64,000 bases of DNA from Thermodesulfovibrionia bacterium (GTDB taxonomy: Bacteria; Nitrospirota; Thermodesulfovibrionia; UBA6902). The translations under genes were made by a program, and so were the position numbers. This document shows positions 1-63,481 of this stretch, in pieces. The notes beneath the pieces are model-generated. The model saw nothing but the letters and a program-made list of their open reading frames with translations. It did not search any database and was not told the origin of the DNA. The stretch's first letter is position 1; each line of letters begins with the position of its first letter. The DNA is taken from assembly GCA_947259645.1 (NCBI GenBank), contig CAMYND010000019.1, positions 1 through 64,000 on the forward strand, given 5' to 3'.

Positions 1-390
1 TCCCCACTGCTGCCTCCCGTAGGAGTCTGGACCGTGTCTCAGTTCCAGTGTGGCCGATCAACCTCTCAGTCCGGCTACCCGTCTTCGCCTTGGTGAGCCG
101 TTACCTCACCAACAAGCTGATAGGCCGCAGGTCCCTCCTCAGGCGCCACGATTGCTCGCAGCTTTTACCTCAAGGCATTTCACCTCGGGGTCATATCCGG
201 TATTGGGCCCGATTTCTCGGGAGTATCCCAATCCTAAGGGCAGGTTACCTACGTGTTACTCACCCGTTCGCCACTAAGTTATAAAAATCCACCAACCGAA
301 ATCAGCTTTTTTAAATAACCCCGTTCGACTTGCATGTGTTAAGCGCGCCGCCAGCGTTCGTTCTGAGCCAGAATCAAACTCTCAATAAAA
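1..390 (-). rRNA. rrs: 16S ribosomal RNA, 5' portion (window starts inside the gene; 5' end near 382-390)
   Basis: Reverse complement of 1-60 contains ACTCCTACGGGAGGCAGCAG (the universal 338-357 region). Reverse complement of 363-382 is AGAGTTTGATTCTGGCTCAG (27F region). GAACGAACGCTGGCGGCGCGCTTAACACATGCAAGTCGAACGG is present. ORFs 48-284 and 50-277 fall inside this rRNA and are spurious. Confidence 0.93.
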
Positions 391-2567: not shown

Positions 2568-4487
2568 ATGGGAAGAGTAATCGGCATTGACCTTGGAACC
2601 ACCAATTCCGTAGTAGCTGTTATGGAGGGCGGAGAGCCGACAGTTATAGCAAACCAGGAGGGAACAAGAACAACCCCTTCCGTTGTAGCCTTTACAGACA
2701 AAGGGGAGCGTCTCATCGGACAGGTTGCAAAGAGACAGGCAATCACCAATCCGGAAAACACTATCTTCTCCATCAAGAGGCTGATGGGAAGAAAACTGGA
2801 TTCCACTGCGGCCAAGGATGCGCAGAAGAAGCTGCCCTATAAGATTGTAGGAGCGGCAAATGGTGACGCCCATGTAGAAGCCCACGGCAAAGCATATTCA
2901 CCACCCGAAGTTTCCGCAATGATACTTCAAAAGCTAAAGCAGGCTGCAGAGGATTACCTGGGGGAACCGGTAACCGATGCTGTCATTACTGTACCCGCAT
3001 ATTTTGACGACAGCCAGCGTCAGGCAACAACGGACGCGGGGAAAATAGCAGGGCTTAATGTCTTAAGAATAATCAACGAGCCAACAGCCGCCGCTCTTGC
3101 TTACGGCATGGACAAAAAGAAAGAAGAGAAAATCGCTGTCTATGATCTTGGAGGCGGAACGTTTGATATTTCGATCCTGGAGATTGGTGAAGGAGTCGTA
3201 GAGGTCAAGTCAACAAATGGCGATACCTACCTCGGCGGCGATGATTTTGATCTTGTGGTAATGGACTGGCTCGTAGATGAGTTCAAGAAAGACTCCGGGA
3301 TAGATCTTCACAATGATAAAATGGCCCTTCAAAGATTGAAGGAAACTGCTGAAAAGGCAAAAATAGAGCTCTCTTCAGCAATGGAAACTGAAATCAATCT
3401 GCCCTTTATTACAGCAGACGCCAACGGGCCTAAACACCTTGTGATCAAGTTGCCCCGTTCAAAATTCGAACAGCTTGCAGACGACCTTATTCAGCGAACA
3501 ATCGGCCCCTGTAAAACAGCCCTCTCTGACGCCGGCCTAAGCGCATCAGAAATTAACGAAGTACTACTTGTAGGCGGGCAGACAAGGACTCCGAAAGTCC
3601 AGCAGGTCGTCAAAGAGTTTTTCGGCAAGGACGCCTCGAAAGGGGTCAATCCTGATGAAGTTGTTGCTTCAGGTGCTGCGATACAGGCAGGAGTGTTAAA
3701 GGGAGAAGTCAAGGATGTTCTTCTTCTCGACGTCACCCCTCTCTCTCTTGGTATTGAAACCCTCGGCGGAGTGTTTACCAAACTGATAGAAAAGAACACA
3801 ACAATACCTGCCAAGAAAAGCCAGATATTTTCCACAGCAGCTGACAGTCAGCCCGCAGTCTCGATTAAAATATGCCAGGGAGAACGGGAAATGGCCTCTG
3901 ACAACAAGGTCCTGGGGAATTTCGAGCTCGTCGGGATCCCGCCAGCACCACGTGGTGTTCCCCAGATCGAGGTCACCTTTGACATTGACGCGAATGGGAT
4001 ACTCCATGTTTCAGCGAAGGACAAGGGCACGGGTAAAGAGCAGTCAATCCGGATTACTGCTTCAAGCGGACTCTCCGAAGAAGAAATAGACAAGATGACC
4101 AAAGACGCAGAGTCCCACGGGGAAGATGACAGAAAAAAACGCGCCCTGGCAGAGGCAAAAAATGAGGCTGACACCCTGATTTACTCCGTTGAGAAATCCT
4201 TGAAAGACTATGGTGATAAAGTTTCAGACGACGAAAAACAGCAGATTAACACCGCTCTTGAAAAGTGCAAAAATCTGAAAGACACCACAGCAGATGCTGA
4301 TGAACTGAAAAAGGCTGTGGAAGAGCTGACTACAGCTTCTCATAAAATTGCCGAAGAAATGTATAAAGAGGGAGCAGCCGGCGCAGAAGGCGCTGAGCAG
4401 TCTGCAGAAGGGACTGACGAGGACAAAGAAAAAGAGGATGTTGTTGAAGCAGAGTTTGAAGACACCGATAAAGATAAAAAGGAGTGA
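2568..4487 (+). CDS. dnaK: molecular chaperone DnaK (Hsp70)
   Basis: [18 protein letters not shown], and a C-terminal EEDK-rich tail. AGGAGG SD at about 2553. Confidence 0.97.
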
Positions 4488-4595: not shown

Positions 4596-5705
4596 ATGAC
4601 AAAGGATTATTATCAAACATTGGAAGTAGACAAAAGCGCAACTGATGCTGATCTGAAAAAAGCATACAGAAGACTGGCGCTTAAATTTCACCCGGACAGA
4701 AACCCTGACGACAAGACTGCAGAAGACAGGTTCAAGGAAATTAACGAGGCCTACGCATGTCTCAGCGACTCGCAGAAAAGGTCGAACTATGATCAGTTCG
4801 GCACTGCAGACGGCGCCGGGGCAGGCTTTGGAGATTTCTCCGGAAATTTTGGAGACATCTTCGGGGAGATGTTCGGCGATATCTTTGGAGACTTTACCGG
4901 AAGAAGGAGAAACAGGCCTGCAAAGGGTCAGGACCTTCGCTACGACCTGGATATTGACCTAAAAGACGCTGTTTTTGGAACAGAGAAAAAAATTACGATA
5001 CCGCGGTCAGAGACCTGCTCCACCTGTGTGGGTTCCGGCTCCAAACCCGGAACAAACCCTGCAACATGCCAGACCTGCAGCGGCACAGGACAGACAAAAC
5101 TGCAGCAGGGATTTTTTGTTATCTCACGAACATGCAATAACTGCAGGGGAGAAGGCAAGATCATTACAGACCCGTGCACAAAGTGCAAGGGCCAGGGAAA
5201 GGTCAGAACAGAACGGAATGTATCACTGAAAATACCTGCAGGAGTTGATACAGGCATACGTTTGCGCGTAACCGGTGAAGGTGAAAGCGGAAGCCACGGA
5301 GGCCCGCCGGGCGATCTCTATGTAGTGATAAACGTTGAACCCCATCCCTACTTTAAGAGAAAAGGGAATGACCTTCTCTGTGAGGTCCCCATATCATTTG
5401 TTCAGGCTACACTGGGAAGTGAAATCGAGGTGCCGACAATTGATGGGAAAGCAGCTATCAAGATTCCTGCAGGAACTCCGTCCGGCAGAGTATTCCATTT
5501 GAGAGGAAAAGGCGTCCCAAAGCTGGGTTCATACGGCAAAGGCGACCAGTTCATTAACATCTTTATTGACGTTCCCAAAAAACTGTCGTCAAGACAGAAA
5601 GAACTGCTTGAGGAGTTTGCCGAGATCAGCGGTGATGAAGTTTCCAAAGGGTTTATGGACAAGATAAAGGACATGTTCCAACACCAGCATAAAGAGGCGA
5701 AGTAA
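4596..5705 (+). CDS. dnaJ: molecular chaperone DnaJ
   Basis: J-domain with HPD ([10 protein letters not shown]), a G/F-rich linker, and four CxxCxGxG zinc-finger repeats. Confidence 0.95.
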
Positions 5706-5736
5706 GGACAGCATTCAGCAATCAGCATGAAACGTA

Positions 5737-5768
5737 GGGGCGAACAGATGTTCGCCCTTTTTTATTAT
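5737..5768 (+). terminator. rho-independent terminator of the dnaJ operon
   Basis: GGGGCGAACAgatgTTCGCCC stem-loop followed by a TTTTTTATT run. Confidence 0.8.
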
Positions 5769-5806
5769 CTGGATATCCCATCAACTTCCATACGAGATAA
5801 AACCGG

Positions 5807-6484
5807 TCAGAATAAACGTGAAACAAGCTTCAGTACGGAACCGATGATATGATAATCATTGCTATGTGATGAGTTGTAAGCACTGCCTATTGTTTCCAGA
5901 GAGGAGGAATGCTCTTTCGCACGCTGTTTTTCCCTGCTCAATTTTTCAGCTTCCGCCATTTTTTTCCTCTGTTCATCCAGGATCTGGCCGCCTGCTTTTT
6001 TCCATTCCATGAGCCGCCTTAATTCTGAGCCTTCAAGCCAGATCCCGTCCGGTTTACAGTTGTCAATGATAACACCGCTGCCGGTCCCGAAATTTATCCG
6101 GTGCATGAGTTTCCTGCATATAGGGCACTTGCGATAGGCAACCCTGAAATTTTCTTTGCCAAGTTCATTTGAAAGGTTCTTTATTTTGTCGATATTAACA
6201 TGGAAGACATTGGAAACAGATTTTTCAAGCACTGACTCAAGTTCACCGGGATCAAAAAACATACCAAGGCACTGTTCGCACCTCTCTATGTAAAAGTTGC
6301 CTTCAAGTCCCAGGTCAAGAGTCTGTAACGGGATACCGCAGTTCGGACATATCCTCTCTGTACGGGGCTTATTAACCGTGTACTGGTGTACTCCTTTGAG
6401 GTCAACGTCACTTCTCTGCCCGCAATAGTTGCAGATATTCTTGTTCGGCGGCATCGGGGCTGAACAGGATTCACAGAGAGCCAT
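5807..6484 (-). CDS. tandem zinc-ribbon protein (two TFIIB-type Zn-ribbon/YfgJ-like repeats), YdjG-like
   Basis: Two CPxC...CxxC...(W/F)xDxGEL modules: CPNCG...CEQCLGMFFDPGELE and CPICR...CKPDGIWLEGSELRRL. Abuts the SPFH gene with zero gap. Confidence 0.6.
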   Translation of the reverse strand: MALCESCSAPMPPNKNICNYCGQRSDVDLKGVHQYTVNKPRTERICPNCGIPLQTLDLGLEGNFYIERCEQCLGMFFDPGELESVLEKSVSNVFHVNIDKIKNLSNELGKENFRVAYRKCPICRKLMHRINFGTGSGVIIDNCKPDGIWLEGSELRRLMEWKKAGGQILDEQRKKMAEAEKLSREKQRAKEHSSSLETIGSAYNSSHSNDYHIIGSVLKLVSRLF

Positions 6485-52091: not shown

Positions 52092-52144
52092 AGTTAAATT
52101 TGATCTGCTTTCAGCAGCTGACTTTTCATTCTCTTTCTTTTTTT

Positions 52145-52175
52145 GCTGACAGCTGAGAGCTGACCGCTGAAAGCT
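52145..52175. repeat. heptamer tandem repeat (GCTGANN)x4: GCTGACA-GCTGAGA-GCTGACC-GCTGAAA-GCT
   Basis: Read directly in the lysS-lolC intergenic gap. Confidence 0.8.
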
Positions 52176-52176
52176 A

Positions 52177-53676
52177 CTATAACTGCTCCGGCCTTAACTG
52201 CGGGAACAGAATAACATCCCGTATTGAGGCTGTATTCGTCAGTATCATAAAAAGCCTGTCAATGCCGATTCCCTCACCAGCCGCGGGCGGCATTCCGTAT
52301 TCAAGGGCCCTGACAAAATCTTCGTCCATGTAATTCGCCTCTTCATCTCCCTCTTCCCTGGCCCTGACCTGTTCCATAAACCGCTCTCTCTGGTCAACAG
52401 GGTCATTCAGTTCTGAAAAGGCATTTGCAACTTCCCGGCCGCCGATAAAGAGCTCAAACCTCTCCACAAAGTCAGGGGCATCTTTTTTACGTTTGGCAAG
52501 CGGTGAAAGCGCCACAGGATAATCAGTGATAAAAACGGGTTGAATAAGAGTTGGTTCAACTTTTTTCGAGAATATTTCATCAAGAATTTTGGCGTGATTA
52601 GCCTTCTTTTCTATGTTGATCTTGTTGTCATGGGCGTATTCTCTTGCCCTGGACAGATCTTTAAAAACTGCCGGGTCCACACCCTCTTTCTCCATAGCAT
52701 CCATCATGGTCAGGCGAGGCCATGGCGGTGCCATATTAATAACTTCGCCTTTTCCGTCTTCATCCTGATCTCCGAAAGGAACTTCAAGCCCGCCATTTAT
52801 TTCCTGGCACACAAAGGGGATGAGCTCTTCAGTAAAGTCCATCAGGTAGGTATAGTCCTTATAGGAAATATAAAATTCAAGCATGGTAAATTCCGGATTG
52901 TGCTTTGCTGAAATCCCTTCATTTCTAAAATTCTTGTTAATCTCATAAACTCTCTCATACCCCCCGACAAGAAGCTTTTTCAGATAAAGCTCCGGAGCAA
53001 TCCTTAAAAACAGGTCAAGGCCAAGGGCATTGTGGTGAGTCTGAAAAGGTCTTGCTGTTGCCCCGCCCGGAATCTGGTGCATCATCGGTGTCTCAACTTC
53101 AATAAAATCCCGCTCATCAAAAAAGTTCCTGATAGCCTTGATCAGCTTGCTCCTCTTCAGAAAAAGTTCTCGCACGTGAGGGTTCACTATCAGGTCAACA
53201 TAACGCTGTCTGCAGCGGGTCTCGATGTCCTTTAAGCCGTGCCACTTCTCAGGCAGCGGCCGAAGTGATTTACACAGCAGGGTGTAGCTGCCGGTCTCTA
53301 TTGTCAGCTCATCGGTCCTGGTCCTGAAGAGCGTGCCTCTGACTCCGATAATATCGCCGATATCGAGGCCCTTGAAGAGGTCCTTGTTGCCGGTAATTAT
53401 ATCCTTGCTGAAATAGATCTGTATCTTACCTGTATCATCCTGGACATGAGCAAACGCGGTCTTTCCAAAATCCCTCAATGATATAATACGGCCTGCAATG
53501 GAGCAGTCCTGTTTTTTTAATGCAAGCTCATCTTTATTTAAGGGGCTGAAGTTTCGTGCGATATCCGCGGCCTTGTCCGTGGCATCAAAGGCTTCACCAT
53601 AGGGGTTAATACCTGAATCTCTGAGTCTCCCCAGCTTTTTTAATCTTTCCTGTATCAGTTCATTTGTTTCTTCCAT
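52177..53676 (-). CDS. lysS: lysine--tRNA ligase (class II)
   Basis: N-terminal OB-fold (anticodon-binding). Class II motifs and the GGGIGIDRL end motif. Confidence 0.95.
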   Translation of the reverse strand: MEETNELIQERLKKLGRLRDSGINPYGEAFDATDKAADIARNFSPLNKDELALKKQDCSIAGRIISLRDFGKTAFAHVQDDTGKIQIYFSKDIITGNKDLFKGLDIGDIIGVRGTLFRTRTDELTIETGSYTLLCKSLRPLPEKWHGLKDIETRCRQRYVDLIVNPHVRELFLKRSKLIKAIRNFFDERDFIEVETPMMHQIPGGATARPFQTHHNALGLDLFLRIAPELYLKKLLVGGYERVYEINKNFRNEGISAKHNPEFTMLEFYISYKDYTYLMDFTEELIPFVCQEINGGLEVPFGDQDEDGKGEVINMAPPWPRLTMMDAMEKEGVDPAVFKDLSRAREYAHDNKINIEKKANHAKILDEIFSKKVEPTLIQPVFITDYPVALSPLAKRKKDAPDFVERFELFIGGREVANAFSELNDPVDQRERFMEQVRAREEGDEEANYMDEDFVRALEYGMPPAAGEGIGIDRLFMILTNTASIRDVILFPQLRPEQL

Positions 53677-53809
53677 TGCTCGCCTTTCTGAACGCGGGGA
53701 ATACTGAAGACAGCTGAATCACCTGGTCCGGGTTACCGGCTCTCGTGACAAACATTTCCTGCGCTGTAGTTTTATCATCACACCTGTCTGCCACGTTGCC
53801 TGACTCGAA

Positions 53810-54085
53810 TTAATCAATGAGCGAGGACAGGATTTTTGTCTTTTCCTCAATCAGCCTGTCCAGATCTTTCTGCTCCATTCTGACTTTGAACAGTTCGTCA
53901 GCAATGCCAAACGCGGCCATAACAGCAGCCTTTCCCTGGTTCACATTCGGGGCGACGCTGTAGATCTCTTTCAGCTTTTCGTCAACATACCGTGCAAGAG
54001 ACCTTATATACTCGTCGTCCTCATCTGTTTTTATTGAATAGCTCTGGCCAAGTATCTGGACTTCTACAGAACGCATCTGCACCAC
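53810..54085 (-). CDS. zapA: cell division protein ZapA
   Basis: VEVQILGQSYSIKTDEDDEYIRSLARYVDEKL; 91 aa. Confidence 0.8.
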   Translation of the reverse strand: MVQMRSVEVQILGQSYSIKTDEDDEYIRSLARYVDEKLKEIYSVAPNVNQGKAAVMAAFGIADELFKVRMEQKDLDRLIEEKTKILSSLID

Positions 54086-54104
54086 CTGATATGAATTCTG
54101 AGAA

Positions 54105-54374
54105 TTATAATTCTACGGAATCAAGTTCCTGAATTAAATTCTCCACCTGTGACTTTACTTTTGCACGTTCGTTGTTGAGTCGGTCAACATCAATTCTTAA
54201 AGATTCTGAATTTTTCATTTCCCGTTTGGATTTGATCAGCTCATCCTCTTTCTTGTCCATCTCTTCCTTGAGTTCTCTGAGTTGACTCTTCAAAACATTA
54301 TTTTCTTCAGTAACAGATTTTATTTTATCAATGACTTTCGTGATTTTTTCTTCAAGCATCTCTATTTTTTCCAC
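54105..54374 (-). CDS. zapB: ZapB-like coiled-coil cell-division protein (ORF called from TTG 54392; GTG 54374 with GGAGG SD more likely)
   Basis: Entirely heptad coiled coil; directly upstream of zapA. Confidence 0.6.
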   Translation of the reverse strand: MEKIEMLEEKITKVIDKIKSVTEENNVLKSQLRELKEEMDKKEDELIKSKREMKNSESLRIDVDRLNNERAKVKSQVENLIQELDSVEL

Positions 54375-54529
54375 TACTGAATCCTCCTTCAAATGTTAAG
54401 GCTGCCCTTTCATTTCAGGTTGTAACTTATCAAAAATTAAATGAAAAAGTAAAGCCTGCCCTTCAACTTACCGACATAAATTATTGTATTATATGGATTC
54501 CCCGTCATGAAATTGCCGAAACCAGCTTT

Positions 54530-56665
54530 TCACAGCCCCTGTATGGGAAGGCCGTTTATGCGGCGGTACTGCCAATAGCTTTTCATTACTTTTTTCACAT
54601 AGTTTCTCGTTTCCAGATAGGGAATATTCTCTATAAATTCAGACATATCTTCGCTGCTGAACCGTGTCAGCCAGTCTCTCAGCCTGTTTTCTCCCGCATT
54701 ATAGGCAGCAACTGCAAGAGGTATCTCCTTGAATTCATTGAGCAGTTTGGACAGGTAATGTGATCCCAGGGTAATGTTTTTCTTGCTGTCATGAAGCTCA
54801 AATCGTCCCTTAAAACTTACCCCCGCGCTCCTCCCCATTCTTTTGGCTGTTGCCGGCATTAACTGCATGAGTCCGATAGCTCCTGCCCAGGACCTCACAT
54901 TACGGTCAAAACGGCTCTCTTCCCGAATCAAAGCGGCTATAAGATAGGCATCAAGGCTTTCCTCTTCAGCCGCACTGTTAATTGATGGCCAGTATGCACG
55001 TGGATATGAATAGGGAAGCAACTCCTGTTCAGCACGGGATTCAGCAAATGCTATCATTCTCTTATATACTTCAAGCTCCATTGCGCGCGATGACAGGTAC
55101 ATATACTCATCATATTGCTTTCCCCAGCCAAAAGACCGGGATAGTTCCTTCGCGGCTTCTTCCTTCATCCCGAGCAGCATAAGCGTCTCTATCCTGTCGT
55201 AAAGCTCCCCAACAGGTTTAACCGGTACGGGAGGGAATATTTTATCGGACACCTCATTTATCCCGGCATTAATCCTGATGAGATAGCCGTAATAAGAGTC
55301 ATCAAAAGGCAGTCCTTTAAAAAAGTTTTCATTTGCTTTTTCGCAGGTTATGTCCCCGGATACGATTCCTGTTTCCAGGCACCCATCATACATCTTTTTC
55401 TTAACGCTGGCGGTCCAGTAGAGGTACTTATACTGGTTGCCCTTGTGCGGCAGGGAGGTCAGGCGTGAAAAGTACTCCACAGAACGGCTGTAATCTGCAG
55501 CGGTAAAGTGCATCCAGGCAAGCCCCCATAAGGCCTGTTCAGCACTATCAGGGTAACTGGTCAAGACTTTCCGGTACGTATCATCAGCTTCTGTAAACAG
55601 CCCTTTTCTCCTGAACTCATTCGCTTCCATGATATAGAGAAGGGCAAGTTTTGTGTCACCCGGTGATCTCTGTTCCAGTTCCTTCTTTGTTTTTTCAAAG
55701 CCTTCCCTGTCATCGATCCTGTAAAAGGAGCGGGCCCTCCAGTAGAGAGCCTCCGGGGTGGAGAGAAGCCCGAATGTGCGAGCTGATTCAGTATATTTTT
55801 TCTGCCTGAACTGGCTCATCCCAAGTTTAAAGAGAATGTTTCTCTTACCCTTTTCAGTGTATAATTTTAAGAGAGACTGATATGCTGCCTCAGCTTTTTT
55901 GTAATTAAAGTTTTTAAATTGACTATCCGCTTTTTTCAGCTGTTCTTTTTTATTTAATGATGTTGCCTTGAGTTCCTTCATTCTCGCGAAAGCATATCCG
56001 GAAACAGGCGCGTTATGGATGTAAAGGTTCCTATAGAGACCTATAGCTTTGTCTCTCTTTCCCTGCTCTTCAAGAAGACGTCCCAGCATCAATTTGTAGT
56101 CCCAGTCATCAGGATAGTTCGAAACATAGTCAGTTAATTCCTTCACTGCTTCCCTGTCTTTCTTGAGGCTGAAGAGTGCCTCAATTGCAGACTTGCCCGC
56201 ATCCTGCCGCAAGAGCTCACTCTGTACACGCCTCGATGTGGCAAGAGCTTTTTCATAGTTCCCGGAAGATCTGTACGTATCAATCAGCAATATGAGGGCA
56301 TAATCCCTGAGCAGAGGATTTTTTTCCGCGACCCGGGTCAGGTATTCTTCAGCTTTGTCAAATGCCCCTTCTATATGATAGATCTTGCCCAGCAAAAAAC
56401 CAGCCTCCCCATTGCCTGGCTCGTCAATACCCGCTAAAGGCAGCAGGACCTGCTCAGCCTCTTTATACAACGTCCGGTCCATGAGATAAACAGCACGCGC
56501 GATCTTTGTTATTCTTTTCTCTCTGTATTCGCCGGGATGAACTTCATGGACGCTCTGAAATTTCACATGGGCCGGAAGAGGGCTGAGTGAACAAAATACC
56601 AGCGCCAGGGCAGTTATCATGACTGAGAGCACCCTGTTTTTTAACGGGCTATGATTCATAGGCAT
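54530..56665 (-). CDS. slt: soluble lytic murein transglycosylase (Slt70-like: signal peptide, TPR/superhelical domain, C-terminal SLT domain)
   Basis: C-terminal ALIREESRFD...SWAGAIGLMQLMPATA (SLT Glu/motif). Long alpha-helical repeat N-terminus. Confidence 0.85.
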   Translation of the reverse strand: MPMNHSPLKNRVLSVMITALALVFCSLSPLPAHVKFQSVHEVHPGEYREKRITKIARAVYLMDRTLYKEAEQVLLPLAGIDEPGNGEAGFLLGKIYHIEGAFDKAEEYLTRVAEKNPLLRDYALILLIDTYRSSGNYEKALATSRRVQSELLRQDAGKSAIEALFSLKKDREAVKELTDYVSNYPDDWDYKLMLGRLLEEQGKRDKAIGLYRNLYIHNAPVSGYAFARMKELKATSLNKKEQLKKADSQFKNFNYKKAEAAYQSLLKLYTEKGKRNILFKLGMSQFRQKKYTESARTFGLLSTPEALYWRARSFYRIDDREGFEKTKKELEQRSPGDTKLALLYIMEANEFRRKGLFTEADDTYRKVLTSYPDSAEQALWGLAWMHFTAADYSRSVEYFSRLTSLPHKGNQYKYLYWTASVKKKMYDGCLETGIVSGDITCEKANENFFKGLPFDDSYYGYLIRINAGINEVSDKIFPPVPVKPVGELYDRIETLMLLGMKEEAAKELSRSFGWGKQYDEYMYLSSRAMELEVYKRMIAFAESRAEQELLPYSYPRAYWPSINSAAEEESLDAYLIAALIREESRFDRNVRSWAGAIGLMQLMPATAKRMGRSAGVSFKGRFELHDSKKNITLGSHYLSKLLNEFKEIPLAVAAYNAGENRLRDWLTRFSSEDMSEFIENIPYLETRNYVKKVMKSYWQYRRINGLPIQGL

Positions 56666-57016
56666 AGACTATATTAGCCCATATCATTCTGCCACGCAAT
56701 ACTTCCTCCTGCTGTTCCCGGGCAGACCCTGAGAAATCTTCAAAATGGCTCCCCTGCTGGATAAGAACGCGCAAATATAGCATAATAGCCTGTTAAATAA
56801 TGGTTATTTAGAATTCAGCATTGAGCAGGTTGTGAGGAAATCTACAATAATCACACTGTTGTCATGCTGGCAAAAAAACCTGTCAACAGCCTACTGGCTA
56901 TTAAATTTTATCATTAAATATACTGTTTTTATATCCTTAAGTAATGGTTCTTCAGTACCGTATAAATAACTACATTGATGCAGTATTAAAATATTGATTT
57001 CAAACCTCCTGGACAG

Positions 57017-58147
57017 GTGGACATGTACAGAGTCGTAATACAAACATATTCCCGAACAACACAGATATTCAATTTTATGCTCGTCCTCATTTTTTCGCTC
57101 TTTATGCTTGTCACTGCAGTGTCGGCAGATCAGTCAGGACCGGATGAGTGCATAGGATGCCATGAAGACGTTTACCTGAAGGCTATTTCGAACAAATATC
57201 AACATAGCATCCTGAGAGAAAAATGCACCTTTTGCCATGTACAGGAAAATCCTGAAGGGGAACTTGAATTAATGCGTAACTTTAAAACCCTTCAGCAAGA
57301 CCAGATCATTTACTTAAAAGACCTCAGCAAAGACCAATTGTATGGCGCAGAAATATCAGCAACAGGATATTACGGAGCGCGGAGCCAGCCAAGGAGTTAT
57401 AATCTGTCCCCGGGGTCTGTACTTATCCATGAACAGCTGGAGACGGTGAACCAGATCTCGGACATATCTGTTGATGAGATACAAAAAGGCGCTTTTGTCC
57501 GGGCTGTGATTTCCTGGAACACAGACTCATTCTCGTCGTCTGAAATAGAATACAGTGCTGATGGCAATAGTCCTTACCGGTTTATCTCACGGGACATATA
57601 CACGACAAGACATCGTATTGTCCTGAGAAGACTAAAAGGGAACAGCATTTATAGCTTTAAAGTCATCTCAAGGGACCTCCACGGAAATAGTGTTGAATCA
57701 GCGGATTATTCAATTGACACATCACAAAATTTCACCGCTCCGGACAACTACTATGGAGAGCCACTCTCAATCGACCACATGCAGGCCTTTCGCGTAGTGG
57801 GGAGAGAAGGGCTGTTTCTGAAAGTTTCTGCCAACAGGCCTTCAGAACTGCGGTTGCGGGTCACGCAGGTAAAGGAAATGGATCCGCGGCATGGCTTCGG
57901 TCTGCTTCCTGCGCGGCATATCAGAATCGATGTGTGCGTCTCCTGCCACCCACGGGGCACATCCCATCCGGTTGGCGTAAGAAGTGAAGGCAAAAAAATC
58001 AGAACTCCCGATGAACTCCCGACCATTGAAAATGGTGTAATCACCTGCGTTACATGCCATATGCCACATGGCGGCAGCAGAGCATACTTCAACCGCTACG
58101 ACCGAAACAGGGACATATGCGTACTCTGTCATATTGGGGGCTATTAG
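57017..58147 (+). CDS. pentahaem c-type cytochrome with central FN3-like beta-sandwich domain
   Basis: Five CxxCH motifs: CIGCH, CTFCH, CVSCH, CVTCH, CVLCH. N-terminal signal/anchor. FN3-like block VISWNTD...YSFKVISRDLHGN. Confidence 0.8.
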   Translation: MDMYRVVIQTYSRTTQIFNFMLVLIFSLFMLVTAVSADQSGPDECIGCHEDVYLKAISNKYQHSILREKCTFCHVQENPEGELELMRNFKTLQQDQIIYLKDLSKDQLYGAEISATGYYGARSQPRSYNLSPGSVLIHEQLETVNQISDISVDEIQKGAFVRAVISWNTDSFSSSEIEYSADGNSPYRFISRDIYTTRHRIVLRRLKGNSIYSFKVISRDLHGNSVESADYSIDTSQNFTAPDNYYGEPLSIDHMQAFRVVGREGLFLKVSANRPSELRLRVTQVKEMDPRHGFGLLPARHIRIDVCVSCHPRGTSHPVGVRSEGKKIRTPDELPTIENGVITCVTCHMPHGGSRAYFNRYDRNRDICVLCHIGGY

Positions 58148-58191
58148 ACTCTGCATACTACTCTCACAGACATGAAAAACCAGGAATGTTC

Positions 58192-58749
58192 ATGAGGAAT
58201 ATCCACGGCAGAAAACTGCTCAATTTTTCGATAAAACGCAATTTCCAATTACGGCTATTAGGAAAGGTCCTTGGTATCGCTATTATAGGGATAGGAATAA
58301 TGGCCGCGGTGTTTTATTTCTACAGCAACAGGGAGATAACTGAAAGCTACCGGCAGTTTCATGTAGAGGCCAAAAATTTTCTGGACTACCTCTGGCCGGC
58401 AGTATTCATGTCACTGATTCTCGCGATCATTGCCGCTGTCGCGATCACGCTCTTTTTCCCTCAGAAAATTGCAGGGCCGCTCTACCGGATAGAAAATGAC
58501 TTAAAAGAGAAAATCTGCAAAGGCGACCTTTCGCACACCATTAAACTGAGGAAAGGGGATGAGGTAACTGACCTGGCAGAAGCCCTTAACATGACCATTC
58601 ATGAAATACGTCAAAAGATAGAGAACATCAGAGAGCCGGCAGTTGAACTGGAATCAAAGCTCAATGCACCGGGAAAGAACATCAGCAAAGATATCGCAGA
58701 TCTGTCTCGTAAAATAAATGACGCACTGCGGGCGTTTAAGCTGCAGTAA
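58192..58749 (+). CDS. membrane-anchored HAMP-domain-only protein (ORF called from 58054; likely start ATG 58192)
   Basis: Two transmembrane segments flanking a short loop, then a HAMP helix pair (GPLYRIENDL...GDEVTDLAEALN). No output domain. Confidence 0.6.
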   Translation: MRNIHGRKLLNFSIKRNFQLRLLGKVLGIAIIGIGIMAAVFYFYSNREITESYRQFHVEAKNFLDYLWPAVFMSLILAIIAAVAITLFFPQKIAGPLYRIENDLKEKICKGDLSHTIKLRKGDEVTDLAEALNMTIHEIRQKIENIREPAVELESKLNAPGKNISKDIADLSRKINDALRAFKLQ

Positions 58750-58762
58750 TATCATTAAAGAA

Positions 58763-58805
58763 CTCAGCAGTCAGGTATCAGCGGTCAGCATTCAGTTTCA
58801 GTGCA
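58763..58805. repeat. heptamer tandem repeat, minus-strand reading (CTGAAA-CTGAAT-GCTGACC-GCTGATA-CCTGACT-GCTGAG)
   Basis: Read directly; follows the stop of the HAMP gene. Confidence 0.7.
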
Positions 58806-58914
58806 AAAAAACTGTCTGCCGGTGGCTCATATCACGAATAAAGCCCTCGTTTCGAAGTTCCTTGTGAATGAAAATTCTTGTTATATTGAGGCAGAAGTCA
58901 GAGATTTTTTTTGT

Positions 58915-58949
58915 GGCTGATAGCTGATAGCTGAAAGCTTATCGCTGCC
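58915..58949. repeat. heptamer tandem repeat GGCTGATA-GCTGATA-GCTGAAA-GCTTATC-GCTGCC
   Basis: Read directly; immediately 3' of tRNA-Cys. Confidence 0.8.
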
Positions 58950-58964
58950 TTTGGTGCGTAAAGA

Positions 58965-59040
58965 TGGAGGCGGCGAGCGGATTCGAACCGCTGCATAAAG
59001 GTTTTGCAGACCTCCCCCTTAGCCACTTGGGTACGCCGCC
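58965..59040 (-). tRNA. tRNA-Cys (anticodon GCA)
   Basis: Manual cloverleaf: acceptor GGCGGCG/CGCCGCC, discriminator U, anticodon loop CUGCAAA, T-arm AGCGG-TTCGAAT-CCGCT, CCA encoded. Confidence 0.85.
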
Positions 59041-59053
59041 GCAAAAAAAAGCA

Positions 59054-59107
59054 ATCAGCATAGAGCTGTCAGCGATCAGTTTCTTTCACTGACAGCTCTA
59101 TGCTGAT
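59054..59107. repeat. 19-bp perfect inverted repeat (ATCAGCATAGAGCTGTCAG ... CTGACAGCTCTATGCTGAT) forming a hairpin between tRNA-Cys and tRNA-Gly
   Basis: Read directly; 16-nt loop. Contains GCTGA-type motifs related to the heptamer repeats. Confidence 0.8.
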
Positions 59108-59124
59108 CGCTCATCGCTGTCTTA

Positions 59125-59199
59125 TGGAGCGGGAGACGGGGTTCGAACCCGCGACAACCACGTTGGCAACGTGGAGCTCTACCACTGAGCTACTCCCGC
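59125..59199 (-). tRNA. tRNA-Gly (anticodon GCC)
   Basis: GCGGGAGTAGCTCAGTGGTAGAGC...; anticodon loop UUGCCAA; T-loop GGTTCGAAC; CCA encoded. Confidence 0.88.
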
Positions 59200-59265
59200 A
59201 AGACTAGTTACATTAAAAGTCGAAAATCGTACTACCGGATCTTGACAATATCAGTAAGCGCGTAT

Positions 59266-59294
59266 TGCCATACGCCCCTGCAACGTCTATAATA
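59266..59294 (+). promoter_or_regulatory. sigma70 promoter for trpE (TTGCCA-N17-TATAAT)
   Basis: TTGCCA at 59266-59271 and TATAAT at 59289-59294, with exact 17-nt spacing. Short leader (about 35 nt), no leader peptide. Confidence 0.55.
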
Positions 59295-59334
59295 GACACC
59301 TAAAATAGTAATTAAAAAGGGGCAATTTTGTCAA

Positions 59335-60819
59335 ATGCTGTATCCGAATCTCAAAGAGTTTAAAGAATACGCGAAAAAAGGCAATCTCATCCCTATATAC
59401 AAGGAAATTCTTGCTGACCTGGACACACCCCTGTCCGCATTTCTTAAACTCAAAAGCAAGGCCTGCTTTCTCCTTGAAAGCGTTGAGGGCGGCGAAAAGT
59501 GGGGGCGTTACTCCTTTATCGGGAGCAATCCCTCAGTTATTATTGAGGGGAGCGGAAAGTCCCTGACCATCAGAAAAGGCAGGCACAAAGAGAAGTTCGA
59601 GGCCAGGAAAGACCCCCTTGAAATTATATCCACTGAATTAAAAAAATATAAACCCGTAATTGTGCCTGGACTGCCCCGTTTTTTTGGCGGCTTTGTCGGA
59701 TATATCGGCTATGACACGGTACGATATTTTGAAGAACTGCCTGATCGCAAGCTCGATGGGCTCGGTCTGCCGGACATCTTCCTGATGCTCACCGACACGC
59801 TTGTTGTATTTGATAACCTGACCCACAAGATAAAGGTGATCTCAAATGCCCATGTGGAAGGCAGACCTGAAGTCGCTTATAAAAAGGCGCTCAGCAAGAT
59901 TGATCTCATTGTAAAAAAACTCAGATCCAGAACTGTTATGCCGAAGACAGCCAATGCTCGCTCTTCACGAAAACCACAGGGGAAGAAGACATTTTCATCT
60001 AATTTCACAAAAAGAGCCTTTATCAAGGCGGTGGAAAAGACAAAAGAATATGTAAAGGCAGGTGATGTGATCCAGACAGTAATATCACAGAACTTTGAGA
60101 AAGAGACAGAGGTCACCCCCATAAATGTCTACCGGGCTCTTCGCGTTATTAACCCGTCTCCCTACATGTATTATATTGAAACGGGGACCAGCACCATTGT
60201 AGGGACGTCGCCGGAAATCCTTGTTCGAGTCGAGGGAAAGGCCCTTGAACTCAGGCCGATAGCAGGAACGAGGAGGAGAGGAAGAACCCCTGAAGATGAC
60301 ATCTATATGGAAAATGAATTAAAAGAAGACCCAAAGGAAATAGCCGAACACATCATGCTTGTTGACCTCGGGAGAAACGACCTCGGCCGGGTCGCGGTCA
60401 CAGGCTCAGTCAAGGTCACAGAGCTGATGAATGTTGAGAGATATTCCCATGTCATGCACCTGGTGTCAAACGTGGTTGGGACGCTGAAGAAAAAACATGA
60501 CGCCTTTGATGTTCTCAGGGCTTCATTTCCGGCAGGCACCGTGACAGGGGCCCCGAAAATCAGGGCAATGGAAATCATCGAAGAGCTTGAACCCACAAAA
60601 AGAGGTCCCTATGCGGGGTCAATAGGATATTTTGATTTCTCAGGAAATATGGATACCTGCATCACAATAAGAACGATCATATTTAAGGGCAACAAGGCCT
60701 ACATTCAGGCAGGCGCCGGAATTGTGGCGGATTCTGATCCGGAACTGGAGTACAAAGAAACGGTCAACAAGGCCAAGGGTATGTTCCGTGCAATTGAAAT
60801 GGCGGAAGATGAGTTATAG
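59335..60819 (+). CDS. trpE: anthranilate synthase component I
   Basis: [18 protein letters not shown]; GTRRRG; [17 protein letters not shown] chorismate-binding signature. Confidence 0.93.
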
Positions 60820-60875
60820 TGTCCTGTCGCAGGGGCTTATTGCATTATGCCTCTGCATTGAAAGGAGTTAGACAA

Positions 60876-61448
60876 ATGTTACTAATGATCGACAATTATG
60901 ATTCTTTTACATACAACCTTGTCCAGTATTTAGGGGAGCTGGGCGAAGACATACGGGTCTTCAGGAACAATAAAATTTCAATAGCTGAAATAGAGAAACT
61001 CAAGCCTGACAGGATCGTCATTTCCCCGGGTCCGTGCACGCCGAAGGAGGCCGGCATATCTGTAGACGTGATCAAACAGTTCGCCGGACGAGTTCCGGTC
61101 CTCGGGGTCTGTCTTGGCCATCAGTCAATAGGTGCTGCATACGGCGCAAAAATTGTAAACGCTCCACGGCTCATGCATGGAAAAACTTCCATGATTGAGC
61201 ATGATGGCAAAACAATTTTCAAGGACCTTCCAAACCCTTTCGAGGCAACACGGTATCATTCGCTGATTATAAAGAAAGAGACCCTGTCAAAAGATTTTGT
61301 AATCAGCGCCTGGACAGACCAGGGCGAAATCATGGGCATACGGCACAAAAAACTGCCCATTGAAGGCGTGCAGTTTCATCCTGAATCGATCCTTACAAAA
61401 GCTGGAAAAGATCTGCTGCGCAATTTTTTGCGTATCAAGATGGCCTGA
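60876..61448 (+). CDS. trpG: anthranilate synthase component II (class I glutamine amidotransferase); ORF called from 60819, AAAGGAG SD favours ATG 60876
   Basis: [15 protein letters not shown]; GVCLGHQ (catalytic Cys); HPES. Confidence 0.92.
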
Positions 61449-61624
61449 GCCACAGGGCTTTGGAACTTCATATCCAGCGTGCGTATCCGGGCAGGCCTAA
61501 GGTGATTTTTAAGGGCAAATCTGTTAAACTACTGAAGTTAAAGATTGATGCATAAGGGATCACTACAGGCATTTAATTGGCTGTTTTTCGCGGTTCATAT
61601 TTTAAGAGTTGGCCCTATCAGAAC

Positions 61625-62095
61625 ATGAAACTCCCCTATCACATTGCTGCTTCAACAGCTGTTTCAGGAGCATTATACCTGACCTTCAGGTCATGGGGCC
61701 TGGCTGCCGCCAGTTTCATCGTGGGAATATTTATAGACCTTGATCATCTGTCTGATGTCATGCGGGAACATGGGAAGTCAGTAAGCATAAAAGATTTTTT
61801 CCGCATTTGTGAGACTGCCCAGTTTAACCGCATAGTCCTCATCTGCCATGGATGGGAATGGCTTGTCCTCGGAACAGCCGCAGCCTGGTTTGCAGGCTGG
61901 AACCCGTGGGCTGTGGGCGCCCTGATCGGACTTGCCCATCACCTGGCATTAGACGCAGTCCATAACAGCTCTGACCCGCGAAGTTACTTCCTCTTGTGGC
62001 GGTGGAAAAACAACTTTGATTTTGACACCTGCTTCTCAAAAATGACTGAATGCAAATATGGCTCAGTGAGCTACTCCCCAAAAGATATCAATTAA
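61625..62095 (+). CDS. membrane-bound metal-dependent hydrolase, YdjM/DUF457-like (ORF called from 61577)
   Basis: Hydrophobic helices with His/Asp positions (IDLDH, CHGWEW, AHHLALDAVH). Confidence 0.5.
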   Translation: MKLPYHIAASTAVSGALYLTFRSWGLAAASFIVGIFIDLDHLSDVMREHGKSVSIKDFFRICETAQFNRIVLICHGWEWLVLGTAAAWFAGWNPWAVGALIGLAHHLALDAVHNSSDPRSYFLLWRWKNNFDFDTCFSKMTECKYGSVSYSPKDIN

Positions 62096-62220
62096 AACTG
62101 TCCGCCCATCTCTGATGAAACTCATTCCTGAATATTTTATCGTTCCCTATGATACAATGAGGCATTTCTGCAATAGCACACAGGAACCATTCAGGTCGAT
62201 CATTATCTCAGGAGGAACAT

Positions 62221-63231
62221 ATGCTAAAAAAAGCGATTAGTCTGGCCGTGGAAGGCAAGGATCTGTCAACAGACCAGATGGCAGATGCTATGAGAGAGAT
62301 CATGGGAGGCAAAGGGACTGATGCCCAGATCGGCGCCTTTCTGACCGCGCTGCGCGTAAAAGGGGAGAGTATTGACGAAATCACCGGAGCAGCAACGGTT
62401 ATGAGGGAAAAGGTCTCAGCTATAAAAGCCCCTGCCTTCACTATTGACACCTGCGGAACAGGCGGTGACATGTCTCATACCTTTAACATTTCAACAACTG
62501 CCGCTCTTGTCGCGGCTGCATGCGGCGTTCCCGTAGCAAAACATGGGAACCGTTCTGTCTCCAGCAGCTGTGGTAGCGCTGATGTTCTTGAGGCACTGGG
62601 TGTCAAAATTGACCTGGAGCCTGCAAAAGCTGAAAAATGTCTGGAGTCCACGGGTTTCGCTTTTATGTTTGCTCCCCTGTTTCACCCTGCGATGAAATTC
62701 GCTATAGGGCCTCGTAAAGAAATGGGAATAAGGACCATATTCAACATCCTCGGACCGCTCACAAACCCGGCAGGCGCCCAACGGCAGGTGCTGGGAGTGT
62801 TCAGCGATCACCTTACAGAAGTAATGGCACATGTGCTCCTTAACCTGGGCACTACACATGCATTCGTTGTCCATGGGGAAGACGGTCTGGACGAGATTAC
62901 CAACACTGACAGGACACGGGTGTCTGAACTCAGGGAGGGAACGGTCAAGACATACTCTATCTCTCCTGAAGACTTTGGTTTAGCGAAATGCGGCAAAGAA
63001 GACCTTGTCGGTGGAAATGCAGGGGAAAACGCAAAGATAACCCTGAATATTCTTGATGGTCAGAAAGGCCCCGGAAGGGACATTGTCCTCATGAACGCGG
63101 CTGCCTCTCTGGTGGCTGCAGACAAGGTCAAGAATTTCATTGAGGGCGTAACCGCGGCATCCCGGGCTATTGACTCAGGGGCAGCGAAAAAGAAACTGGA
63201 AGAAATAAAAGAGGTTAGTAACAGGTTGTAA
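62221..63231 (+). CDS. trpD: anthranilate phosphoribosyltransferase
   Basis: GAFLTALRVKGES; DTCGTGGD; NRSVSS; GPLTNPA. Confidence 0.93.
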   Translation: MLKKAISLAVEGKDLSTDQMADAMREIMGGKGTDAQIGAFLTALRVKGESIDEITGAATVMREKVSAIKAPAFTIDTCGTGGDMSHTFNISTTAALVAAACGVPVAKHGNRSVSSSCGSADVLEALGVKIDLEPAKAEKCLESTGFAFMFAPLFHPAMKFAIGPRKEMGIRTIFNILGPLTNPAGAQRQVLGVFSDHLTEVMAHVLLNLGTTHAFVVHGEDGLDEITNTDRTRVSELREGTVKTYSISPEDFGLAKCGKEDLVGGNAGENAKITLNILDGQKGPGRDIVLMNAAASLVAADKVKNFIEGVTAASRAIDSGAAKKKLEEIKEVSNRL

Positions 63232-63233
63232 GG

Positions 63234-63260
63234 AAGCTATCAGCTATCAGCATTCAGCTT
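63234..63260. repeat. heptamer tandem repeat, minus-strand reading (AAGCTGAAT-GCTGATA-GCTGATA-GCTTCC)
   Basis: Read directly; immediately 3' of trpD. Confidence 0.75.
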
Positions 63261-63404
63261 AAAAAATGTAGCAAGCCTTATTTTAGAGAGCAAATGCTTC
63301 AGTAAAATTGATTTTATAATCAATCCTCTCGTCATCTTTTTTATAGATTTATAAACTGCAGCGCTGATCGCTTACGTTGATTATTTAATTAATCTTTGTT
63401 TCTA

Positions 63405-63439
63405 AACTGATAGCTGAATACTGACAGCTGACGGCTTCC
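63405..63439. repeat. heptamer tandem repeat AACTGATA-GCTGAAT-ACTGACA-GCTGACG-GCTTCC
   Basis: Read directly; just upstream of dnaE. GCGCTGATCGCTTACG at 63361-63376 is related. Confidence 0.75.
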
Positions 63440-63481
63440 TCCCGTTTGACTAATCGACAAACAATATTCTAAAATTTTCTC

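Follow-up and report, generated by a model that had tools for sequence, protein, structure and literature searches.

The question raised by the 64,000-nt stretch of Thermodesulfovibrionia DNA analysed here (assembly GCA_947259645.1, contig CAMYND010000019.1, positions 1 to 64,000; hereafter the window) is what is represented by the short tandem arrays of a GCTGANN heptamer that lie between its genes. An earlier note had described these arrays as a dispersed intergenic family and had offered three explanations, namely a protein-binding array, a replication or recombination hotspot, and a genome-specific repeat. The results presented below place the GCTGA arrays in a widespread family of polar heptamer-array elements located at gene boundaries. 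What the data establish is an element that is polar, paired and conserved.

The whole window was searched for chains of CTGA or TCAG at 7-nt spacing. This search yielded five arrays and a hairpin, at the places already described and with only slightly refined limits, and no other chain of equal strength in the 64 kb. Tandem Repeats Finder reported a period of 7 at 52145-52175, 58916-58947 and 63235-63259. The pattern CTGA-N3-CTGA-N3-CTGA, with at most one mismatch, was matched 12 times in the window, while shuffles that preserve dinucleotides led to an expectation of 0.49 matches (standard deviation 0.78) and never reached 12 in 100 trials. On this point the earlier note is confirmed: the family is real and dispersed between genes, and its GCTGA core is conserved and recurs every 7 nt. 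The bare pentamers are ordinary in number (124 GCTGA and 138 TCAGC), so that oligonucleotide bias does not explain the arrays; the test of intergenic enrichment against such bias, which the earlier note had proposed, was thus decided for enrichment. An unbiased lag scan confined period-7 self-similarity to the heptamer arrays. Of the window, 86.6% is taken up by genes, those for RNA included, and each array lies entirely outside them, arrays being present in 5 of the 36 intergenic gaps. The unit consists of GCTGA and two variable bases (NN), and a partial unit, GCT, forms the array terminus. In all seven window arrays (7/7) the GCTGA strand, read 5' to 3', points to the adjacent gene, and four of them form two inverted pairs around spacers of about 110 and 145 nt.

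It had been overlooked that the arrays are arms of inverted pairs capable of forming very stable bulged hairpins. Family statistics were taken from the loci fetched for the scan matches listed, in genomes and viral contigs. In these loci the module has the grammar 5'-(nnTCAGC)3-6, spacer, (GCTGAnn)3-6-3', in which the GCTGA strand reads outward to the neighbouring gene. Among neighbouring arrays at most 200 nt apart, 87 pairs had the order TCAGC...GCTGA, 8 the opposite order and 12 lay on the same strand, which refutes the statement that the arrays occur in either orientation. An inverted partner within 200 nt was found for 40% of the genome seed arrays, against 0.4% expected from the array density elsewhere in the same loci. 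The outer array end lies at a median distance of 8 nt from the boundary of a long open reading frame (ORF). Stop codons are mostly 0-10 nt from the arm and often fused with its terminal AGC as TAGC-nn-TCAGC; start codons are 0-30 nt from the arm, with a Shine-Dalgarno sequence in between. The gene context of 94 modules was co-directional (ES) in 42 cases, divergent (SS) in 7 and convergent (EE) in 3, the rest having at least one unresolved flank. About 165 arrays have no recognisable partner and are equally close to ORF ends. In single arrays the GCTGA strand is directed toward the ORF in 95 cases and away from it in 56, and arrays point at stop codons as often as at start codons.

Within the unit, conservation reaches 93-99% at the core positions, whereas position 6 varies almost at random; 44% of units have A at position 7. 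C2 is nearly invariant (4 variants in 714 units) and less variable than its pairing partner G4, the commonest core variant being G4>A. The substitution spectrum follows the GCTGA strand and is identical in both arms. Array size peaks at 4-5 units, and 198 of 290 four-unit arrays contain three or four different NN. Units share their NN at a rate of 0.19 when adjacent and 0.28 when two apart, against 0.087 expected, which indicates that arrays grow by duplication of one or two units. The arms gain or lose whole units or unit pairs by slippage.

The distribution of the element was assessed by an exact scan for four GCTGA cores in register in one genome per bacterial species (596 Gb). At least 120 matches were obtained, where about one is expected by chance with equal base frequencies. 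According to the record titles, from which the group assignments were taken, the matches listed include about 45 from Acidobacteriota, together with Chloroflexota, Planctomycetota, Verrucomicrobiota, Nitrospirota/Thermodesulfovibrionia, Cyanobacteriota, Bacteroidota, Gemmatimonadota, Omnitrophota, Patescibacteria, Poribacteria, Desulfobacterota and others. Among the matches listed, the element spans more than 10 bacterial phyla as well as tailed phages, and the proposal of a genome-specific family has to be abandoned, since the same arrays occur in many phyla and phages. About one third of the bacterial matches listed are perfect microsatellites, for example (GCTGAGT)n, and the others resemble the window arrays in that the core does not vary, NN does, and the usual size is 4-5 units. 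The same pattern gave at least 120 matches in IMG/VR, and arrays with degenerate NN made up 164 of 229 among the matches listed. Two control cores of equal composition, GTCGA and GACTG, also matched viral contigs many times, mostly as perfect microsatellites (99 of 140 cases for one core and 68 of 78 for the other). The raw match count is therefore no evidence, and the excess of degenerate NN is. True microsatellites of the GCTGA unit were also observed: locus L095 bears 23 units at 3801-3961 with a 14-nt super-period, (GCTGACAGCTGATG)n, and L002, L005, L046, L065 and L113 contain 11-19 perfect units of the type (GCTGAGG)n, (GCTGAGT)n or (GCTGATT)n, in some cases where the contig ends.

Three viral contigs are head operons of tailed phages, with terminase, portal, MuF, prohead protease and capsid genes, and bear a module in nearly each gene gap. 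Their layout is a stop codon, 2-10 nt, (nnTCAGC)3-9, 10-30 nt, (GCTGAnn)3-6, a Shine-Dalgarno sequence and a start codon. In the head operon of the array-rich phage L162, a 32-codon hydrophobic ORF (5790-5888) was seen between two modules; its start comes right after GCTGAAAGCTT and its stop lies 5 nt ahead of the next arm. A cultured relative of L162 was sought, and only terminases at most 50% identical were found. In other phyla the arrays abut housekeeping genes, namely leuA-like, xseB, rpsI, thymidine kinase, atpC and LolC/E-like genes, and locus L001 carries the module duplicated in tandem. In the acidobacterium Candidatus Sulfotelmatobacter (L072) a four-unit GCTGA array (2264-2291) is found 6 nt upstream of a LolC/E-like gene. 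An array of the window also has such a neighbour, which is probably a coincidence because the two arrays have opposite orientations.

A de novo scan of the fetched loci revealed other families with five conserved and two free bases. Within this larger and little-described class of heptamers, the GCTGA family had the widest distribution seen. CGAAAnn units were observed as inverted pairs of 4+4 units with the same architecture as the GCTGA modules (L438, 1324-1395 and 4689-4782). ATGAAnn, AATGAnn, ACTGAnn, GACTAnn and AGTGAnn families were seen in L292, L307 and other viral loci.

The history of a single module could be followed between trpD and dnaE. In the window its left arm (63235-63258, minus strand) consists of three units plus AGC (AGC taTCAGC taTCAGC atTCAGC) and begins 4 nt past the trpD stop codon (63229-63231). 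A spacer of about 145 nt (63259-63405), poorly conserved in relatives, leads to the right arm (63406-63436, plus strand), which has four units plus GCT (aCTGATA GCTGAAT aCTGACA GCTGACG GCT). This arm ends 9 nt ahead of the -35 box of a dnaE promoter-like site, TTGACT-N18-TAAAAT (63446-63475, plus strand), which contains no repeat unit and is given as context. The related motif GCGCTGATCGCT that had been noticed at 63361 is indeed one unit within the spacer, but it is solitary and by itself not significant.

By its TrpD the source of the window belongs among Nitrospirota, and the relatives compared were metagenome-assembled genomes of Thermodesulfovibrionia type found through TrpD. Four Nitrospirota relatives (L121, L122, L124/L125), whose TrpD is 75-79% identical, keep the trpD-dnaE synteny and both arms. 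In the alignment, identity was 0.93-0.97 for the cores, 0.27-0.50 for NN, 0.54 for the spacer and 0.76 for the dnaE promoter region, and the orthologous arms differ between relatives by whole units. The contrast of the cores with NN and spacer does not come from neutral decay, which implies that the cores are selected or continually homogenised. In the promoter-like site, TTTGACTAA is invariant in five relatives, one of them without arrays (alignment A1, columns 234-269).

The presence of arrays is patchy among syntenic relatives. In L126 the lysS-lolC and tRNA-Cys/tRNA-Gly/trpE synteny is kept and arrays are absent, and L122 has the tRNA hairpin of the window and lacks the neighbouring inverted pair. 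At shared synteny, no heptamer array was found in L126, L441 and L443, against seven in the window. L443 keeps trpD-dnaE and the promoter and has no heptamers. At the same two places it bears an inverted pair of GTAG-tagged palindromes (TGTAGGGGCA...TGCCC), of which five copies were counted in 21 kb. GTAG-tagged palindromes are described as elements of the repetitive extragenic palindromic (REP) type (Di Nocera 2013). Two unrelated repeat families thus fill the same niche, and the REP-like pair at the heptamer-arm positions suggests functional equivalence, which is the strongest hint that the modules work in a REP-type manner. Members of this second family were seen at 5734-5768 of the window (plus strand, GTAGGGGC...GCCC), as a terminator-like hairpin with a T6 tail, and at L443 5185/5318, 9015 and 11008/11111, L122 6896 and L442 17598. 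The L443 palindromes form inverted pairs about 100-130 nt apart, one of them exactly at the place of the window's heptamer arms.

Modules with a spacer of at most 60 nt all folded at z < -3 (68/68), with a median minimum free energy (MFE) of -42 kcal/mol and a median z of -7.2. The predicted stems are composed of 5-6 bp helices with an interruption every 7 nt. Taken singly, arms showed no folding beyond that of shuffles (z between -2.8 and +2.4). In the window, a short-loop module built from units related to the GCTGA heptamer lies between tRNA-Gly and tRNA-Cys (59043-59119, minus strand). Its hairpin (59051-59111) has 27 predicted pairs and a 10-nt loop on the transcribed minus strand and is directly followed by U8 (MFE -50.8 kcal/mol, z = -10.3); as modelled, the module looks like an intrinsic terminator. 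The hairpin has a counterpart at the equivalent place in L122, and these two were the only cases in which the stem-loop was combined with a U-tract. As a general interpretation, the intrinsic terminator was rejected on the rarity of U-rich tails (2/78 oriented modules). Rfam at the gathering threshold recognised only tRNA and 16S in the window, and at E <= 10 the hairpin gave only chance miRNA-like matches below threshold.

What, then, might the modules do? By analogy, they may be cis elements comparable to REP and to bacterial interspersed mosaic elements (BIME), that is, register-tolerant bulged stem-loops at cistron boundaries, and we would put the probability of this reading at roughly 40%. 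The transcript, or a single DNA strand, across the module would fold into a long stem of 5-6 bp helices broken every 7 nt. With a core common to all units, any unit of one arm could pair with any unit of the other, in any register. Such register-free pairing would mean that unit gain and loss are tolerated while the stem is kept, that NN need not match and that only the core is constrained. The stem-loop could set the 3' end of the message upstream and shield it, as REP and BIME do in Escherichia coli, where REPs are close to stop codons and stabilise messages (PMC12306157). It could also separate neighbouring cistrons, and would terminate transcription where a U-tract comes next, as after tRNA-Gly in the window. 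As a by-product or a second role, three units of an arm located by the downstream start codon would provide every reading frame with a UGA, because 7 = 1 mod 3; on the complementary strand, nnTCAGC, no stop is possible in any frame, whatever NN is. The stem-loop reading accounts for the invariant core, the free NN, the whole-unit indels, the coupling of the arms and the equivalence with the REP pair. It is also compatible with read-through, the co-directional context being dominant, including in the phage head operons.

Several observations weigh against a stem-loop. A hairpin alone does not predict the 87:8 order of the arms, and pure structure leaves unexplained why one GCTGA core, with a near-invariant C2, is found across phyla. 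NN did not co-vary from one arm to the other (unit pairs with the same N1: 37, with 46 expected; with the same N2: 68, with 59 expected), and the flanks beyond the arrays were not complementary to those of the partner (outer z = 0.2; inner z = 2.5, a slight signal). Neither a wobble-type asymmetry between the 5' and 3' arms of oriented modules nor a difference in folding energy between sense and antisense (P = 0.25) was detected, so that nothing favours RNA over DNA as the folded species. The loops, at -2 to 147 nt, are of long and varying size, and the partnerless arrays, which do not fold alone, are yet just as near to ORF ends. A U-rich tail, defined as at least 5 T in the 8 nt after the 3' arm, was found in only 2 of 78 oriented modules. 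The arm lengths correlate with r = 0.35, uncorrected for differences between genomes. The polarity may be related to the stop-codon frames and to the fit of each GCTGAnn unit to the elemental pause consensus, G(-10) Y(-1) G(+1), the latter being speculation only.

The protein-binding array of the earlier note is a live rival of the stem-loop reading, although on balance we hold it to be somewhat unlikely. The GCTGA unit would be the site of a multimerising protein on double-stranded DNA or single-stranded RNA, and the hairpin a by-product. This would fit a core whose conservation exceeds that of the neighbouring promoter next to an unconstrained NN, a C2 conserved beyond its pairing partner, and a variant spectrum that tracks the GCTGA strand equally in both arms. 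It would also fit single arrays that are common and unstructured, the polarity toward ORFs, the sharing of one core by many phyla and phages, and the location of the trpD-dnaE right arm, roughly -45 to -75 relative to a conserved promoter. One precedent is the omega repressor, whose dimers occupy adjoining WATCACW heptads, both direct and inverted. For the TAACTGA repeats, binding of single-stranded RNA by S1, Csp or CsrA was proposed by MacGregor (PMC4679880). However, no candidate protein was found, and a factor shared all the way from Patescibacteria to Acidobacteriota and usable by phages would be remarkable. The places of the arrays, namely 3' ends, 5' ends and operon interiors, have no promoter geometry in common, other cores with the same architecture exist, and the strong coupling of the arms needs an extra assumption. 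It is also conceivable, and in our view unlikely, that a conserved sequence-specific factor reads the GCTGA heptads one at a time on DNA or RNA as a punctuation code of gene boundaries. This code would be used from Nitrospirota and Acidobacteriota to Patescibacteria and tailed phages, and TAACTGA, ACTGA and other TGA heptamers would be its dialects.

The frame arithmetic given above follows directly from the sequence and raises the idea of translational insulators, which we regard as quite unlikely. In this case frame-independent stop arrays would halt incoming ribosomes before a start codon or antisense entry, with reinitiation possible and stray transcripts left untranslated. Arrays of at least 3 and typically 4-5 units, and the sense orientation of the arm by the start codon, would suit this role. 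The commonest variant, G4>A, gives TAA and is still a stop; the commonest unseeded degenerate cores carry TGA/TAG (ATGAA, ACTGA, GACTA, AGTGA, TGAAT, AATGA), and TAACTGA also contains a stop codon (PMC4679880). Yet G1 and C2, outside the stop codon, are conserved as much as TGA or more, and families without a fixed stop exist (CGAAA, GTCGA). Moreover, one array in two would cover nothing but the antisense strand at the 3' end of a gene, where the benefit is doubtful, and arm coupling is not predicted. An origin as selfish, non-autonomous DNA, similar to paired REP elements (REPINs) or transposable elements of the miniature inverted-repeat kind (MITEs), spread by a transposase in trans and harmless in intergenic DNA, appears decidedly improbable. 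The patchy presence in close syntenic relatives (none in L126, L441 and L443, seven in the window), the extreme array density of some phages, the REP-like pair in the same niche of L443 and the tandemly duplicated module of L001 are in its favour. It is contradicted by the lack of target-site duplications, by spacers unrelated between copies, by arms that are not mutual copies within a module and by the lack of near-identical copies. In addition, the trpD-dnaE module is orthologous and old, and no transposase was linked to the arrays, whole genomes not being covered. Finally, neutral slippage would produce ordinary heptanucleotide microsatellites without function, of the long simple-sequence repeat (LSSR) class, and this explanation is already disfavoured and highly improbable. 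The same scans contained (GCTGAGT)n, (GCTGAGG)n and (GCTGATT)n as perfect arrays with as many as 23 units, unit duplication is evident, and heptanucleotides are the commonest long simple-repeat class in prokaryotes, at least in the summary of Mrazek 2007 given in PMC4679880. Neutral decay would nevertheless strike all seven positions alike, whereas the cores are conserved and NN near random both within arrays and among orthologues; the narrow size range, strict placement, polarity and pairing are equally at odds with it. The replication or recombination hotspot received no support.

The remaining arrays of the window conform to the following arrangement. A three-unit array, GCTGATT GCTGAAT GCTGTCC, at 5706-5726 (minus strand), beyond the range of the earlier note, begins one base past the stop of ORF 4596-5705 (plus strand), and 7 nt past it stands the conventional GTAG-tagged hairpin with its T6 tail. 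At 52145-52175 (plus strand), an array of four units plus GCT (GCTGACA GCTGAGA GCTGACC GCTGAAA GCT) is preceded by a T-run. It had been placed 3' of lolC; its 3' end lies instead 1 nt from the stop codon (52177-52179) of a minus-strand gene for a LysS-like class II aminoacyl-tRNA synthetase, and the array is 53 nt upstream of the start (52091) of an FtsX/MacB (LolC/E-like) gene. A minimal inverted pair with one unit each, TCAGC-A-GCTGA, is found at 52111-52121, 23 nt from this array, and base-pairs with part of it in the predicted fold.

In the long-spacer module, the left arm (58762-58803, GCTGA on the minus strand) has six units, three of them with a perfect core, and reads on the plus strand acTCAGC agTCAGg taTCAGC ggTCAGC atTCAGt ttTCAGt. 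It begins 13 nt past the stop of ORF 58054-58749 (plus strand) and is followed by A7. The spacer of about 110 nt (58804-58915) has this A7 at its start and T8 at its end, and its interior is unrelated to that of the other long spacer. The right arm (58916-58950, plus strand) has five units (GCTGATA GCTGATA GCTGAAA GCTtATC GCTGcCT) and stops 14 nt short of the tRNA-Cys 3' end (tRNA at 58965-59040, minus strand). Both tRNA-Cys and tRNA-Gly were confirmed. The ORF ahead of this module had been labelled a HAMP gene, a name that does not hold in the window, where no Pfam match was obtained at 1e-5; a faint HAMP match was seen in relatives only. This ORF and the preceding multihaem cytochrome-like ORF with Paired_CXXCH (57017-58147), both on the plus strand, overlap by 94 nt. 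In relatives the so-called HAMP gene is called shorter (182-185 aa), and for this reason its true start is probably downstream of 58054. At the other end of the window, positions 1-389 (minus strand) are the 5' end of a 16S rRNA gene, inside which the window starts, and the 470-nt leader region next to it (390-859) contains no heptamer array.

The element has a simple, searchable grammar of outward pairs that has long been retained, and it occurs in more than 10 mostly uncultured or little-studied phyla and in phages, a distribution that would surprise a specialist. If functional, the arrays would give a handle on operon subdivision and insulation in Acidobacteriota, Nitrospirota, Chloroflexota, Planctomycetota and others, a gene-boundary marker for the annotation of metagenomes and possibly a way of linking phages to their hosts. 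Prokaryotes have an unexplained excess of heptanucleotide repeats, for which the arrays also offer a concrete case to test.

With regard to known systems, no paper naming GCTGA-type arrays was found in the literature searched, which does not prove that the family is undescribed. The closest description there is that of the TAACTGA heptamer direct repeats (MacGregor 2015, PMC4679880), which occur in marine Beggiatoaceae, some Cyanobacteria and Bacteroidetes and have no known function (PMC4679880). Both have a 7-nt period and CTGA in the unit, are almost all intergenic and abut ORF ends, the TAACTGA sets having 2-6 copies. In both, the CTGA strand is directed toward the ORF and has stops in all frames there while the complementary strand is open, single arrays are predicted to be unstructured, and the distribution is scattered over several phyla. 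However, the TAACTGA units are identical, whereas the GCTGA units have two free positions. A single inverted pair was present in 170 TAACTGA sets, against an inverted partner for 40% of GCTGA arrays, and 147 of the 170 sets are directed toward start codons, whereas GCTGA arrays face stops as often as starts. The taxa are largely different, and dense carriage by tailed phages is a feature of GCTGA.

Heptamers of the short tandemly repeated repetitive (STRR) type were reportedly described in Cyanobacteria by Mazel in 1990. Like the GCTGA arrays, STRR and long simple-sequence repeats are tandem non-coding heptanucleotides near promoters or starts with variable copy number; they have identical units, are often long and are not described as outward inverted pairs with a 5-nt core and NN. 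The GCTGA arrays thus share with TAACTGA and STRR the head-to-tail intergenic 7-nt unit and, with the former, the stop strand directed toward the ORF, and differ in their non-identical units. For cyanobacterial heptamers near start codons, described in Nostoc, there is some reporter evidence for regulation (bioRxiv 10.1101/2022.06.06.494920). A plain microsatellite was rejected as a description of the GCTGA arrays, on the conservation of the cores (93-99%) against near-random NN and on the size peak at 4-5 units.

REPs and comparable short repeats between genes have effects on how stable mRNAs are, on termination and on the plasticity of genomes. To our knowledge, REP-type repeats are almost restricted to Proteobacteria and are species-specific. 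REP, BIME and REPIN resemble the GCTGA modules in being short, dispersed and extragenic, often in inverted pairs, between co-directional or convergent genes and near stops, with stable stem-loops in the transcript (PMC12306157, PMC2817692). In contrast, the REP unit, whose sequence is specific to the species, is built as an imperfect palindrome tagged with GTAG or CGTC, and the heptamer arm is non-palindromic with a core shared across phyla. REPs also go with a cognate RAYT (Y1 transposase) gene in the genome; for the modules no RAYT link was established, the source genome being covered over 64 kb. The arms are not self-folding palindromic units of 20-40 nt and end in AGC/GCT rather than in such a tag, the GTAG palindrome of the window (5734) being a different element. 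This agrees with the earlier note, which had seen no classical REP, Chi or MITE signature; neither a GTAG tag, a self-palindromic unit, a target-site duplication nor a shared interior was detected. MITEs were rejected because no direct repeats flank 92 modules and the spacers are unrelated, without a shared interior. Integron attC sites (RYYYAAC ... GTTRRRY) were discarded on the outer ends, AGC...GCT, and on the location in housekeeping operons (trpD-dnaE, xseB, rpsI, atpC). No supporting feature was seen for Chi, sigma-54/sigma-70 promoter mimicry, primase sites (CTG/CTA), K-turn, C/D-box, attC or CRISPR.

The operators of the omega repressor in pSM19035-type plasmids consist of 7-10 contiguous 7-bp units per site with a conserved 5-bp centre. 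Like the GCTGA arrays they are heptads with variable edges in direct and inverted orientation, but they are plasmid promoter or centromere sites of one ribbon-helix-helix protein, which binds cooperatively with a dimer on each heptad, whereas GCTGA occupies many chromosomal and phage gene ends. The RNase III sites of phage T7 are intercistronic hairpins that process or stabilise the messages of phage operons. These sites and terminators share with the modules the bulged stem-loop between polycistronic phage genes, and one window module has a U8 tail; they are, however, not built from tandem heptamers, and U-rich tails are rare in the GCTGA modules (2/78). Taken together, the GCTGA arrays are a variant of the heptamer tandem repeats and of the REP/BIME-like extragenic elements.

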